64,000 nucleotides of DNA from an uncultured Acidimicrobiales bacterium (GTDB taxonomy: Bacteria; Actinomycetota; Acidimicrobiia; Acidimicrobiales; Bin134), in the NCBI GenBank assembly GCA_951813555.1, contig OX638344.1, positions 2,975,076 to 3,039,075 on the forward strand, read 5' to 3'. A program made the translations under genes and the position numbers. Under the pieces are notes generated by a model, which was given only the letters and a program-made list of their open reading frames with translations, searched no databases and had not been told where the DNA came from. Each line of letters begins with the position of its first letter. Within the stretch, counting starts at the first letter, position 1. Of the stretch, positions 39,410-43,400 are shown piece after piece.

Positions 39410-40111
39410 TCAGCCGCCCTTTCTGTTACAGCGCTCCTCGGGGGTGAGGCCGGACAAAGCAATGACGGGGTTTGGCGGGCTGGAATCGGCGGTAAGGTCA
39501 GCGGAAGCAAATGGGGACCCAAAGCGGGTGACCACGGGCACCACCCCCGCCCACCATGGGCCGGCGATGTCCTGAGGCTCGTCGACGGGGTCGCCATTGC
39601 GGATCTTGGCCGACGCCTCGGTCAGCGGCACCTCCAGCACCAGGGTCTTGCGCAGGTCCGACGGGGACGGAGGTCGACCGCTGTCCCAGTTCTCAACCAC
39701 ATGGTCGGTCACCAGTTTGAGGGCATAGCCTTTGCGCTCATCTTCGTCGACACGCCGGGCTGTTCCCCTGATCAACGCCGAGCGGTAGTTCATCGAGTTG
39801 TGGAAGGGCGTTCGGGCCATCACCAACCCATCCAGACATGTGACGGTGACGCAAACCTCCTGGCCGGCACCGGTACCGAGTAGGTGGTTCGCCACCGCAC
39901 CGTGGAGAAAAAGGCATTCGCCGTCATGCCCGTAGGCCATGGGCAGCACCAGCGGCCCATCGGAAGTGGACACCCCCACATGGGCGATCAATCCAGCATC
40001 GAGAATGCTTAGTACGTCCTCCTTGGCATACCGTGCTCGGCCAGCCCCCCGACGCACCCTTACACGCTCCGACGGTGCCGCTGTTTGGCCATCTAGTCCC
40101 GGATCACCCAT
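39410..40111 (-). CDS. Pyridoxamine 5'-phosphate oxidase-like FMN-binding family protein
   Basis: 'ILDAGLIAHVGVSTSDGPLVLPMAYGHDGECLFLHGA' is typical of the split-barrel PNPOx-like family (by eye). It sits 21 nt upstream of mec. Confidence 0.6.
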   Translation of the reverse strand: MGDPGLDGQTAAPSERVRVRRGAGRARYAKEDVLSILDAGLIAHVGVSTSDGPLVLPMAYGHDGECLFLHGAVANHLLGTGAGQEVCVTVTCLDGLVMARTPFHNSMNYRSALIRGTARRVDEDERKGYALKLVTDHVVENWDSGRPPSPSDLRKTLVLEVPLTEASAKIRNGDPVDEPQDIAGPWWAGVVPVVTRFGSPFASADLTADSSPPNPVIALSGLTPEERCNRKGG

Positions 40112-40376
40112 GGCCTGCGAAACTATCGGGGTGCACCTGCTCTTCTCCGCCGAATTTCTATGCCGGGTGTCGTCCCCGGCCGAAGAGATGGAGGATCAGA
40201 GAACCCAACCCTCTTCTGGTCGGTGGCCTACCCTTGCATATGCCCTTTCTGACTGCAATGAGTCAATATGACATCAGATGCGAGTAGCGGAATCGCTATA
40301 TCGAGCTGCCGATTGGCACTTATGAAAAACACCCGGTGACACTCTTAGACCTGGACCGCACAGGACGGCGGACACA

Positions 40377-41000
40377 ATGCTGACTGTAGAAACGGACCAT
40401 GCTGTCGAAGCGATCCAACAAGTAACCAAAACTCCTGCTGTGTCGTTCTCGATTGAAGGGTCCAAGATGCTAGGTGCGTTTGAACTCCTCCCTGATGAGC
40501 ATGAGAGACGGCAACGAGTTGGTGTCGGCGCAATCACCTCGAAGGCCCTCCTACACGGCCTTTGGTTACTGCCCCTCGGGGGCTTCGTGCCGAGTGGAGC
40601 CTTACCCGACTTGAAAGTACAGCAACTTCGCGAGGCTCCATACTCGGCCATCGAAACCAATCTTGGCTTCTGGCGAACTTACGATCCACCAGGGATTCTG
40701 CGATCAGTTGCATTCAGCAGCAACAACGTCGCACAGGCCGTTCAACGAGCTGTCAAGTTCACACCGATCTTTCAGCGGTTCGTTCTAACCAATGAAACGT
40801 GTGGCCCTGTTCCCTGGCCAGTCGAATGCCTAGCGCGCGAGTGGGGTATTGGCATCATCACCTTAAGCGAGCATGCTGACCCTCAGGTTGTAGTTCCGGC
40901 CAGTCCTCCCGAAATCGGGGTCCCGAGTGTCTACCGGTGGTGGGTAGCCGAATTGGCTTACCAGCGCTTCCTTTACAAAAGAGCCCAGCTTGTCAGCTGA
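40377..41000 (+). CDS. Hypothetical protein, 207 aa, no recognisable motif
   Basis: ATG-started ORF within the low-GC islet. The amino-acid composition looks protein-like, unlike the antisense frame. It is convergent with 40973-41995 and overlaps it by 28 nt. Confidence 0.45.
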   Translation: MLTVETDHAVEAIQQVTKTPAVSFSIEGSKMLGAFELLPDEHERRQRVGVGAITSKALLHGLWLLPLGGFVPSGALPDLKVQQLREAPYSAIETNLGFWRTYDPPGILRSVAFSSNNVAQAVQRAVKFTPIFQRFVLTNETCGPVPWPVECLAREWGIGIITLSEHADPQVVVPASPPEIGVPSVYRWWVAELAYQRFLYKRAQLVS

Positions 41001-41995
41001 GCCTTAGGATTCTCTGGACCCTGAATCCCAGCGAGGCCATACGACGTGACGGCGTCTCGACAGGCGTTGCGAAATATAGCAATCCGGTCAGCAGGCTCTG
41101 CATTGAGGATGTAGTCCGCGAAGTCTGCGAGGGCGTTCATGTTGTGCCATCTCGCATCGAGATCTGGGTCCAGGAACCGACCGAGCGAAGCTCCATGACA
41201 GCAAGCGAGAGGACAGACTACGTTGCTTCCGGCTGCCGTCCAGCCTGCGATGTCGTCGACCAGGAACCAGTCGAGCAATGGCCGTACAAAGAGCCGTGGC
41301 GAAGACCCGGGGCGACGACGAGGGCGCATCACCGCTGTTGCAAAATGACGAGTAGTGGTAGTAAGGCCGATTGAAGCATGCTCTGCGCCGAACACAACCG
41401 ATCCAAATGCTCCATGGTCACTACGAAGTTGGAATAAAGAGTCAATCCTGGATGCGATGCGCTGCATACCCTCGACCGCGCCCCCCTCAGACAGTGGATC
41501 CGCCCGGTGAGCAAGAACGAGAGCTACAGGCTGGCCAGTGGATTGCAGAGCATCAACTACCAATTCCGTTCGCTTAGCCACCCACCTAACGTCGAGTGCA
41601 AGCAGAATCATCGCTTCCAGGTCCTCGGCGATGCGACCTTGTTCTCTAACAGTCTGCTTTAGGGCTGCATCCGAGTCTCTGTCCCAATGGATGAAGGCCC
41701 CTGGAAGCAGAAGGCGAGCCGCTCCAACAATGACCTGCTGTTGAATCCATTGCTCAGGCCCAGGGACATTCTCAACTGCATATCCAGTCCCATCGAAGAT
41801 GAATGGACCTTCTAGACCAGCATCACGCAGCCGCTTTGCCGTTTCTGGCCCTTTCGGACCCGCAATTGTGATTGCATCAGCAAGCTCGACTGCAGACCTG
41901 GCCAATTCAGGATTTGTTTTGCAGGCATGGGCGGTGAGGTAGAAGGAGAACGAAACGGGACGTCTATCTACCTTCCATTCAGCCCGTGCGGTCAT
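40973..41995 (-). CDS. Hypothetical protein, 340 aa, alternating beta/alpha pattern with a C-terminal Cys/His cluster. Translationally coupled to the HTH-peptidase gene.
   Basis: The ATG overlaps the upstream stop as ATGA (41992-41995). No TM segment. Cys/His cluster 'VVCPLACCHG...ARWHNMNAL'. I cannot place it in a family. Confidence 0.65.
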   Translation of the reverse strand: MTARAEWKVDRRPVSFSFYLTAHACKTNPELARSAVELADAITIAGPKGPETAKRLRDAGLEGPFIFDGTGYAVENVPGPEQWIQQQVIVGAARLLLPGAFIHWDRDSDAALKQTVREQGRIAEDLEAMILLALDVRWVAKRTELVVDALQSTGQPVALVLAHRADPLSEGGAVEGMQRIASRIDSLFQLRSDHGAFGSVVFGAEHASIGLTTTTRHFATAVMRPRRRPGSSPRLFVRPLLDWFLVDDIAGWTAAGSNVVCPLACCHGASLGRFLDPDLDARWHNMNALADFADYILNAEPADRIAIFRNACRDAVTSYGLAGIQGPENPKAQLTSWALL

Positions 41996-43083
41996 GAGAA
42001 AAGCCCTGCGTCATGAAGGTCGGGACGCACCTTAGGAAGCTGGTTGCGATGCAGGCTGAACCTCTTAGTTTCGTACTGGATATTTCCGATGACCACGCTC
42101 GGATGCACGTTGTACTGCGACGCTGCTTGAAGGATTGCTGGCACGGATGCCGACGTGAATTCGAAACCGCCTGGAAAGAGCCATTCAGTGGCCTGGTCGT
42201 TTGCCGCTATTTCATCTGGATCACTTTGAGGCCCCATGAGGTCGTCATCGAGGATCGCACCGGACTGCGCGGTGATATGGCCCAGTGTCAGGTGGGCACA
42301 TTCGTGAAGCAGCGCGAAGAGCAGACTGTCGAACCGGTTGTTTCGCGTGGTCAGCCCGATCACGGGCCGCCCATCCGTTAGAAAAGTCACCGCGCCGTCG
42401 AGCTTGCCCCCCCGTAGCCCCTCTGCAAACACCAGGGAGACACCACGCTCTCCGAGCAGAAGTGGCAGCTTGGACAGTTCACTGGGTCCATCCTTGAGGA
42501 TCCGGGGAAGGCTCTTTGCGAGGTGCCCCAGCCCATCAATATCGAACGCCGCGACGCCTTGGGTGTCCGCTACCTTCCGGATATACGCAAGCCAAGCAAC
42601 CTGCTCGATTGTTATTGGATCAGCAGAATTGGAGCGCTTCGCCGCCATAGCAAACTGAGGACTGTCATCCAGGTTGCTGATTTCCAGTAGATCGCACACG
42701 GCCGACTCAGTGGCATCAAGGTCATCGGTCTCAGGGATCCACCCCCGAGACCGCACCTGGGCCAGCGGAATCCTCTGGCGTAGTCGAGCTCGCCGAGCAA
42801 CAGGGGTGCGTTCATCTTGGCTTGTAACTGAGCGCTGTTCGTACAAGCGATATGCAGTCTGGAGGTTCAACCAAAGCTCAGGTGTGGTGCCGAGCGCCTC
42901 CGAGAAGGAAATCGCAGTCTCGGTGGTGATCTCCTTCTTTCCGTTCAGAATCTCGGAAACTGCCTGAATGGGCCGATCGATGATCTCTGCGAACTCAGTG
43001 ACAGTCCACTCGCGCTCGTCCAACTCATCACGGAGATACTCACCTGCCGGAAAAACCTCAGCAGGAGTGTAGGTTCTAGCCAT
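41992..43083 (-). CDS. HigA-family XRE helix-turn-helix antitoxin fused to an ImmA/IrrE (COG2856/DUF955-type) zinc metallopeptidase domain
   Basis: N-terminus 'PAGEYLRDELDEREWTVTEFAEIIDRPIQAVSEILNGKKEITTETAISFSEALGTTPELWLNLQ' matches the HigA/VapI antidote pattern. The C-terminal half has HExxH ('LLHECAHLTLGH'). GGGAGGAG lies upstream of the ATG. Confidence 0.75.
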   Translation of the reverse strand: MARTYTPAEVFPAGEYLRDELDEREWTVTEFAEIIDRPIQAVSEILNGKKEITTETAISFSEALGTTPELWLNLQTAYRLYEQRSVTSQDERTPVARRARLRQRIPLAQVRSRGWIPETDDLDATESAVCDLLEISNLDDSPQFAMAAKRSNSADPITIEQVAWLAYIRKVADTQGVAAFDIDGLGHLAKSLPRILKDGPSELSKLPLLLGERGVSLVFAEGLRGGKLDGAVTFLTDGRPVIGLTTRNNRFDSLLFALLHECAHLTLGHITAQSGAILDDDLMGPQSDPDEIAANDQATEWLFPGGFEFTSASVPAILQAASQYNVHPSVVIGNIQYETKRFSLHRNQLPKVRPDLHDAGLFS

Positions 43084-43100
43084 AGTGACGAATCTCCTCC

Positions 43101-43400
43101 CTAGTGGTAATCAACGACTTCGACGATGACCAGGAAGCGGCCTTCGGCATCGGTCTCAACCCGCAAGATGAGCCTCCACCGACGATTGAGCCGGATCGAA
43201 TGCTGGCCAGCACGCCCCCCTTGGAGCTTCTCAAAGTGCAGCGCCTTGTAGTTCCGAAGATCGACCTCGGACTCCGCCTGCGCGAGAAATCCCACCTTCT
43301 TCCGAAAGGCCTTCACAACATCCGAGCTGAGGCTGGGCAGCACGAAGTCGCGTTCCTCGTACAGTCGCCGCAGATTGTCGTCCTCGAATTCCAGCCTCAT
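43101..43400 (-). CDS. higB: HigB-like (RelE-superfamily, plasmid maintenance system killer) toxin
   Basis: 99 aa. 'AFRKKV..L......DL.....LHFEKLQGGRAGQHSIRLNRRWRLILRVE' matches the HigB-family pattern. It sits 17 nt upstream of the HigA-like gene, in toxin-first order as in higBA. Confidence 0.7.
   Translation of the reverse strand: MRLEFEDDNLRRLYEERDFVLPSLSSDVVKAFRKKVGFLAQAESEVDLRNYKALHFEKLQGGRAGQHSIRLNRRWRLILRVETDAEGRFLVIVEVVDYH

Follow-up and report, generated by a model that had tools for sequence, protein, structure and literature searches.

What kind of protein is encoded immediately behind a fused helix-turn-helix (HTH)-peptidase gene in an uncultured Acidimicrobiales bacterium, and what might it be doing there? 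The window, i.e., the whole stretch of 64,000 nucleotides that was analysed (contig OX638344.1, positions 2,975,076 to 3,039,075), carries at 40973-41995 on the minus strand an open reading frame (ORF) for a 340-amino-acid protein, here called T340. A first-pass annotation had described it as a protein of an unknown but conserved-looking family, with a barrel-like pattern and a C-terminal Cys/His cluster resembling those of tRNA-guanine transglycosylase (TGT) and DpdA, and had placed it in effector position behind the HTH-peptidase. On balance, we favor reading T340 as a new zinc-knuckle branch of the TGT/DpdA superfamily which, together with a convergent gene for a 207-amino-acid protein that the annotation did not mention, probably forms the back end of a mobile conflict cassette of the PD-lambda-2/gop-beta-cII type. 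The role of such a cassette would be anti-phage or addiction. Direct reading of the sequence confirmed that the T340 ORF overlaps the gene of the HTH-peptidase (363 amino acids; 41992-43083, minus strand): the minus strand reads ...TTC TCA TGA / ATG ACC..., so that the T340 start overlaps the HTH-peptidase stop as ATGA (41992-41995). This 4-nt overlap is kept in L001-L011, L054, and L067, i.e., in two different architectures of the locus, and the proposed co-expression of the two genes is consistent with its conservation.

T340 is a real gene rather than a chance ORF, because a word-indexed search recovered 153 homologues at E <= 1e-3 and an exhaustive search yielded a family of 446 representative clusters at 50% identity, all of them unnamed. 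T340 had no match in Pfam (E <= 1), NCBIfam, or PHROGs; PADLOC returned nothing at all, and any DpdA model in that library would also have failed. Sequence and profile searches of the PDB gave only noise, with TGT not among the matches, and there were no relatives in phage or viral collections; a phage-borne, DpdA-like anti-restriction role for T340 was dropped on this last ground. In 44 close homologues, C261, C265, C266, and H284 are invariant, and so are D68, Y72, Q87, D135, D166-P167, R191, D193-H194-G195, R216-H217, and W337. A wider alignment of 66 divergent members, down to ~20% identity, leaves D193, R216, C261, H284, and W337 invariant; D68 (62/66), R191 (64/66), G210 (65/66), H217 (64/66), and C266 (63/66) are nearly so, as are Q87 and P167. 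The expectation of a conserved protein of unknown family was thus borne out, as was that of a conserved Cys/His cluster; conserved acidic residues (D68 and the invariant D193) lie at the ends of barrel strands.

The AlphaFold2 model of T340, built on the alignment of the 44 close homologues (pLDDT 90.4, pTM 0.89), comprises eight beta/alpha units followed by a hairpin and helices. DSSP assigns strands to residues 15-21, 41-45, 65-68, 100-102, 129-135, 157-162, 187-192, and 206-210, and all eight hydrophobic stretches that the first-pass annotation had picked out by eye coincide with them. After strand 8 come a short helix, a beta-hairpin (234-237/242-245), a further helix, the Cys knuckle (261-266), and a helix starting at H284-N285; the suggested succession of barrel, Cys/His subdomain, and 'HN' helix is thus seen in the model. 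In our view, the modeling confirms a (beta/alpha)8 barrel for T340, to which a C-terminal Cys/His subdomain of zinc type is attached. When the model was compared with the PDB using Foldseek, the top match was the Thermotoga maritima TGT (2ash_A; E 1e-5, TMq 0.53, 365 columns), which was also the only match near full length and with TMq > 0.5, generic TIM barrels attaining 0.40 or less; the viral structure library returned only generic TIM barrels. The best structural match is therefore a TGT and not an unrelated family, although the match taken alone is only suggestive of a TGT relationship. The earlier idea of a TGT/DpdA-type fold stands insofar as TGT is the nearest solved structure, but the protein has no sequence-level membership in either family.

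A comparison of motifs brings T340 closer to TGT. In DpdA and TGT, a CXCX2CX22H zinc site, its His borne by the last helix of the barrel, anchors to the barrel an insertion that follows strand 8 and contains a helix and a short hairpin; the order of elements after strand 8 in T340 is that of the published Ins8/Zn-site description (PMC10164549). CxCxxC with H(N) about 17 residues further on, which is the TGT/DpdA zinc signature, occurs in 31 of the 66 family members, and 25, T340 included, have CxxxCC, a variant in which one ligand is shifted but the total of three Cys and one His is kept. The His (H284) is present in all 66 and 'HN' in 44. From these patterns, we infer that the cluster, encoded as C261-x3-C265-C266 ... 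H284-N285 at 41144-41215 (minus strand), is a zinc site. The comparison set for profile alignment was 30 actinobacterial TGTs gathered from whole genomes, against which the wide T340 family gave a local hhalign match (P 31%, E 5e-4) that sets D68-x-x-G-Y72 on the catalytic Asp of 'TDSGG(F/Y)Q' and Q87 on the following conserved Gln. D68, the strand-3 Asp of the 'FDGxGY' motif, lies at 41792-41794 (minus strand). The close clade gave a collinear local alignment of residues 44 to 314, with the Cys knuckle on TGT CxCxxC and HN on TGT HN, and a third sub-alignment of the family matched the TGT CxCxxC alone. The alignment of the strand-3 Asp with TGT is accordingly judged weak but reproducible. As a yardstick, the genuine DpdA family (phage 9g and its relatives) attained only P 7.5% and E 5e-3 against the same TGTs; because DpdA scores lower, the sequences of the T340 family resemble TGT no less than those of an established superfamily member do.

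In summary, the T340 family shares with TGT and DpdA (PDB 7UI4) the (beta/alpha)8 barrel, the strand-8 insertion with its helix and hairpin, CxCxxC...H, and 'HN', and with TGT also the strand-3 Asp in D-x-x-G-(Y/F); it differs in having D166, R191, D193, R216, and H217 as other invariant residues and, in T340's own clade, CxxxCC. The host's canonical tgt (G000:C1:2505726-2506793, L051; PF01702 E 5e-127) is separate from T340; its product lacks all three zinc cysteines ('...DPQFPASPIARYSRAY...') and keeps the 'HN' helix, whereas CxCxxC is present in 28 of 29 other actinobacterial TGTs.

The motifs also bear on the suggestion that T340 has nothing to do with TGT and is just another metal-dependent TIM-barrel enzyme, a hydrolase or a metabolic one, whose place beside a toxin-antitoxin-like pair is incidental. 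Many generic TIM barrels have Foldseek E values within a factor of 10 of that of TGT, and T340 lacks a sequence family match, both of which would suit such an enzyme. We nevertheless regard it as highly improbable: TGT alone aligns along almost all of T340, with the C-terminal subdomain included; the zinc motif and HN helix are of TGT type; the linkage to the convergent partner and to HTH-M78 fronts, with 4-nt overlaps, is kept across phyla and on a plasmid; and the distribution of the family is rare and patchy.

Several findings weigh against assigning T340 to the TGT/DpdA superfamily and to a defense cassette. By strand order, the position of the TGT strand-8 nucleophile is occupied by G210 (Gly in 65/66) and that of the strand-4 base-binding Asp by G99 or Ser. 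Note that the strand-8 assignment used an anchor ('PTR' / 'TTR216') chosen by eye; an alternative, low-confidence alignment puts D242 at the nucleophile position, a residue shared by only 20 of the 66 members. Only the strand-3 position among the three TGT catalytic/base-binding Asp positions is thus retained, and with neither the nucleophile nor the strand-4 Asp conserved, canonical transglycosylase chemistry cannot be assumed for T340. In Foldseek E value, generic TIM barrels (from 2e-5 upward) come near the 1e-5 of TGT, and the root-mean-square deviation of T340 from 2ash_A is 6.6 A, which makes the match a moderate one. T340 falls in no sequence model of TGT, DpdA, Beta, or PD-Lambda-2_C; none of the 66 family members matches PF01702 at E <= 0.1, and hhalign of the family with the phage 9g DpdA profile gave P 0.1%. 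The convergent partner has neither a conserved D...ExK motif nor similarity to cII. Lastly, defense is deduced only from the homology of one gene, that of the HTH-peptidase to PD-Lambda-2_B, and from the neighborhood. Phage 9g-type DpdA (L070:3007-3960, P0369-P0488) itself has no precomputed Pfam domain and a consensus without CxCxxC; a missing PF01702 match or zinc motif therefore does not exclude a protein from the transglycosylase superfamily.

The sequence variation across the cassette is uneven. In DNA identity to L002, HigB and the N-terminal two-thirds of the HTH-peptidase reach 97-100%, the partner 91-97%, and the flanking core genes 80-90%, whereas T340 and the last ~100 peptidase codons are only 65-75% identical. 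The cassette is thus a mosaic whose hypervariable, swapped part is made up of T340 and the C-terminus of the peptidase. Such a segment would be in keeping with a role in recognition or in an arms race and with contact between T340 and the peptidase C-terminus. Such co-swapping and hypervariability (65-75% vs. 91-100% for the rest) are typical of recognition modules, and two of the three TGT catalytic/base-binding Asp positions are unconserved. Both points would fit a non-catalytic, TGT-derived sensor or adaptor whose target is a protein, a modified base, or the nucleic acid of a phage, and which signals to the peptidase/HigB or to the partner. The fact that the third gene of PD-lambda-2 is needed for defense and not for toxicity neutralization (PMC9519451) would also suit it. 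That T340 is such a sensor nonetheless seems unlikely to us. D193 and R216 are invariant and D68, Q87, D166, R191, and H217 nearly so (n = 66), at strand ends as in an active site or ligand pocket; the stretch that opens with D193, past strand 7, and closes with R216-H217, past strand 8 (41345-41419, minus strand), would lie on the catalytic side of the barrel. For a mere scaffold, such residues would be superfluous, though a ligand-binding sensor might use them.

If T340 is instead taken as a close functional counterpart of DpdA, it would insert 7-deazaguanine, and the partner would be a modification-dependent or -sensitive restriction component, the two forming a pair like those of restriction-modification (R-M) systems. 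The DpdA-type fold and zinc site agree with this, the convergent order resembles that of many R-M systems, and R-M and BREX genes are neighbors at some loci. However, QueC is absent from the host genome (one contig, 94.7% complete), and a full-length QueC match was found in only one (G422) of six other T340 carriers tested. An activity that inserts preQ0, as DpdA does, is therefore unlikely; queuosine, if it is made in the host, must depend on salvage. Furthermore, no DpdB- or DpdC-like gene lies nearby, the family shows neither similarity to the phage DpdA profile nor relatives in phage collections, the partner has no nuclease motif or nuclease fold match, and one locus (L068) combines a broken T340 gene with an intact partner. 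Taken together, these make the restriction-like pair very unlikely.

We return, then, to T340 as a zinc-bearing offshoot of the superfamily within a conflict cassette, and to its genetic companion. The partner gene (40377-41000, plus strand) is the constant companion of the T340 family. It runs toward T340, and the two coding regions overlap tail to tail by 28 nt (40973-41000), as in most of the close clade; across all loci examined, the 3' overlap ranges from 4 to 53 nt. The partner is convergent in every undegraded locus examined whose DNA reaches the 3' end of T340. Complete copies are present in 20 of the 22 genome loci that carry the four-gene block described below (L015 retains only a fragment) and also in the distant loci L054-L060, L066-L069, and L074, where the protein is ~190-215 amino acids long. 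The partners (101 homologues) are mutually homologous and share the motifs E-H-x-R-R, G-x-G, and R-W-W-x-x-E-x-x-Y, with no Pfam match. The AlphaFold2 model of the partner (pLDDT 91.9, pTM 0.86) found no significant match in the PDB with Foldseek (best E 0.17, with faint YaeQ and Card1-type similarity only), and the protein may represent a new fold combination. The model shows an N-terminal alpha-beta-beta-alpha unit, a possible winged-helix region, an alpha/beta domain, and a long C-terminal helix. On the Arthrobacter agilis plasmid pAAG24-80 (NZ_CP117872.1), a 203-amino-acid ORF that is absent from the plasmid gene table (L069 6837-7448) carries the partner C-terminal motif and is convergent, with a 4-nt overlap, to a distant T340-family gene; the pair lies downstream of an ImmA/IrrE peptidase gene among RES and zeta toxin genes. 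In the window, the 28-nt overlap contains an imperfect 22-nt palindrome (40982-41003; a 9-bp stem with one G-T pair), as a result of which both proteins, read from opposite strands, finish in AQL(T/V)S. The hairpin folds well (z -3.5) but is not conserved in homologous loci, and it was rejected as a bidirectional terminator or regulatory RNA.

The front of the cassette consists of two recognizable genes. The HTH-peptidase has a HigA-type HTH (HTH_3 E 3e-7; TIGR02607 HigA E 3e-15) fused to an M78 (ImmA/IrrE) metallopeptidase with a HECAH motif, and residues 41-349 of its 363 match PADLOC PD-Lambda-2_B at E 1e-33. Upstream of it, and first in the operon, is a gene for a 99-amino-acid HigB-like (RelE-fold) toxin (43101-43400, minus strand), which matches PF05015 HigB-like_toxin (E 4e-12) and phrog_3066 'toxin of TA system' (E 2e-12), but not PADLOC PD-Lambda-2_A at E <= 1. 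The four-gene block of HigB-like gene, HTH-peptidase, T340, and partner is conserved in 22 loci of GTDB representative genomes, mostly of Acidimicrobiia but including one Burkholderiales metagenome-assembled genome (MAG); the flanking genes vary, and incomplete copies occur at contig ends or in degraded cassettes. More distant members of the family (20-30% identity) were found by looking up exact proteins and by searching whole genomes and a plasmid collection. Over all these loci, three architectures are seen: HigB, HTH-M78 (~365 amino acids), T340, and partner, to which the window belongs; DUF6932, a coiled-coil-HTH-M78 protein (~475 amino acids), T340, and partner (L054, L067); and T340 with partner without any front module (L055-L059, L066). 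In L054, L067, L084, and L087, the first gene before HTH-M78 is not HigB but DUF6932 (PF22014). Neighbors at some loci are the BREX genes BrxE/BrxA, HsdR, an integrase, and RES and zeta toxins. Within the phylum, 5 of 401 genomes carry the family; within the genus, the count is 6 of 25.

In the window, the cassette occupies a lower-GC islet (40112-43400; G+C 0.56-0.59 vs. ~0.66 around it) between a PNPOx-like gene and thpR/ligT. There are no direct repeats at the islet edges at seed 9 and length >= 14, and no sigma-70-type promoters in the islet, the latter being uninformative because the host is an actinobacterium. Two other genomes of the genus (L071, G414; L072, G410) bear independent deletions at the chromosomal site corresponding to 39600-43400. 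Both retain HigB and the HTH-peptidase intact, and T340 is gone from residue 112 or 43 onward; the deletions also remove the partner gene entirely and the first ~160 codons of the PNPOx-like gene. Since these remnants keep the front pair, HigB and the peptidase are self-sufficient, and T340 with its partner is one separable unit.

The cassette thus divides into two separable modules, the back-end pair and the toxin/peptidase front, and the "effector position" of the first-pass annotation proved too simple a description: T340 and the partner are the universal core, and HigB/HTH-peptidase is an exchangeable front. In the literature, moreover, the corresponding Beta or 'TIM-B' slot is treated as a regulator or a required third component rather than as a proven effector (PMC9519451; bioRxiv 10.64898/2026.10.19.760177). 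As a tentative extension, with the odds against it, T340 and its partner might be an autonomous, mobile two-gene conflict module, in which T340 is a zinc-bearing, TGT-derived transglycosylase with its catalytic Asp relocated to D193 (strand 7); it would excise or exchange a tRNA or DNA base, or tag a protein with a nucleobase, and would be the evolutionary link between housekeeping TGT/DpdA and zinc-less TIM-B. If this holds, a whole class of defense systems would descend from a nucleic-acid base-exchange enzyme and would still rely on that chemistry.

The same separability raises the question of a self-contained toxin/immunity or toxin-antitoxin pair, T340 being a base-excising toxin (of tRNA or DNA) that is neutralized by the separately promoted partner, with HigB/HTH-peptidase a mere regulator or second toxin. 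The pair is found without the HTH-peptidase in L055-L059 and L066; both genes are lost or degraded together, with the front intact, in three independent deletion variants (L015, L071, L072); and the Arthrobacter plasmid copy lies among RES and zeta toxins. L068, with a frameshifted T340 gene and an intact partner, would be tolerable if T340 is the dangerous component, but this single frameshift may be a MAG assembly error. The convergent overlapping order is unusual for type II toxin-antitoxin pairs. In addition, the difference in DNA identity to L002 between T340 (~70%) and the partner (91-97%) is not expected of a co-evolving toxin-antitoxin interface, and we consider a pair of this kind doubtful.

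How might a TGT-derived barrel act as the back end of a conflict cassette, which is the reading that we favor? The barrel face and the zinc subdomain of T340 would together bind a macromolecule, be it tRNA, DNA, or a protein; there T340 would perform N-glycosidic or nucleobase-transfer chemistry, or generate or sense a nucleobase-derived signal. D68, D166, R191, D193, R216, and H217 would serve in a remodeled site that lacks the canonical strand-8 nucleophile. By analogy with CapH/CapP and IrrE/DdrO, the HTH-peptidase may repress the operon until its proteolytic release on an infection or DNA-damage cue, and convergent transcription through the 3' overlap could make the expression of T340 and of the partner mutually antagonistic. 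Growth would then be arrested or the infection would be abortive, which are the outcomes measured for PD-lambda-2 and gop-beta-cII. The recognizable motifs of T340 offer mutable handles on whether base transfer drives this immunity class. PADLOC, Pfam, and NCBIfam miss both core genes, so that what they score in such cassettes is at best an orphan HigB/HigA-peptidase pair.

Among known systems, regulation of immune or DNA-damage operons by an HTH and an M78 peptidase is described for CapH/CapP and IrrE/DdrO (bioRxiv 10.1101/2022.04.27.489752; PMC13228613; PMC12828697). The likeness is in an XRE-type HTH and an M78 domain directly upstream of co-transcribed defense genes; the difference is that in the window a single polypeptide carries both domains and forms a pair with a HigB-like toxin. 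The capP model also matches related PD-Lambda-2_B proteins.

PD-lambda-2 is anti-phage by experiment (Vassallo et al. 2022, PMC9519451); its A protein is HigB-like, its B protein is an HTH-peptidase that is toxic alone and neutralized by A, and its C protein, described as 'related to a P4 antitoxin', is the third component already mentioned, required for defense but not for neutralizing toxicity (PMC9519451). The window shares with it three co-directional genes (HigB-like, HigA-HTH::M78, and a third protein of ~350 amino acids), tight or overlapping junctions, and an island or mobile context. It differs in that T340 matches neither PD-Lambda-2_C nor Beta_protein PF14350, in the Cys/His knuckle, which is found in none of nine aligned Beta proteins, in the HigB-like protein, which lies outside the PADLOC A model, and in a convergent fourth gene that is not cII-like. 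Since T340 lacks some of the defining features examined for TGT, DpdA, Beta, and PD-lambda-2 proper, we regard it as a variant of these and not a member.

The convergent gene has its counterpart in gop-beta-cII, a system that is protective against the phages lambda and P1 (Rousset et al. 2022, PMC9122126). The P4 record shows gop, beta, and a convergent cII, with a gap of 27 nt between beta and cII. Beta loci on plasmids and in genomes consist of DUF6932 or another small gene, an XRE-M78 gene (PD-Lambda-2_B E 2e-77 to 4e-129), and Beta (PF14350; PD-Lambda-2_C E 1e-41 to 2e-54), with a convergent, overlapping sce7726/cII gene (PADLOC 'cll' E ~1e-27). The convergent overlap is shared, but the partner of T340 is not a recognizable cII/sce7726 PD-(D/E)xK nuclease: it has no PADLOC 'cll' match, and hhalign with seven cII/sce7726 proteins gave P 0.1%. 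Likewise, the T340 family against nine Beta proteins gave P 0.1%; with P 31% against bona fide TGT, the sequence of T340 stands closer to that family than to Beta, and, unlike Beta, T340 keeps the zinc motif. By eye, the order of motifs in T340 and Beta is parallel (Asp-Leu-Gly after a strand, the hairpin, and W...HN vs. W...NHH), which is a lead and not a test. DUF6932, for which no literature was found in the library searched, fronts both Beta/cII and T340/partner cassettes.

Beta/TIM-B, the common third protein of the validated PD-lambda-2 and gop-beta-cII systems, has only recently been proposed to be TGT-like: an October 2026 preprint unified it with the deazaguanine transglycosylase TIM barrel and predicted nucleobase-transfer chemistry as a regulator (bioRxiv 10.64898/2026.10.19.760177). 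The systems described there carry HigB, Pol-beta-type, or other effectors, with a metallopeptidase, with or without an HTH, in between, and a convergent overlapping nuclease (bioRxiv 10.64898/2026.10.19.760177). The cassette in the window has the same general plan of a variable toxin, often an HTH-metallopeptidase, a TGT-related TIM barrel, and a convergent gene for ~190-265 amino acids, and T340 also has the hairpin and following helices of the preprint, TGT as its best fold match, and an upstream HigB/DUF6932 plus HTH-M78. The same two fronts (HigB with HTH-M78, and DUF6932 with HTH-M78) precede either Beta/cII or T340/partner in the same geometry, and the T340 slot thus corresponds to the Beta/TIM-B gene of PD-lambda-2 and of P4 gop-beta-cII. 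The T340 family keeps the TGT hallmarks that Beta has lost, namely the zinc knuckle, the HN helix, and the strand-3 Asp motif; occupying the same slot with those hallmarks retained, it provides independent support for a TGT origin of these systems.

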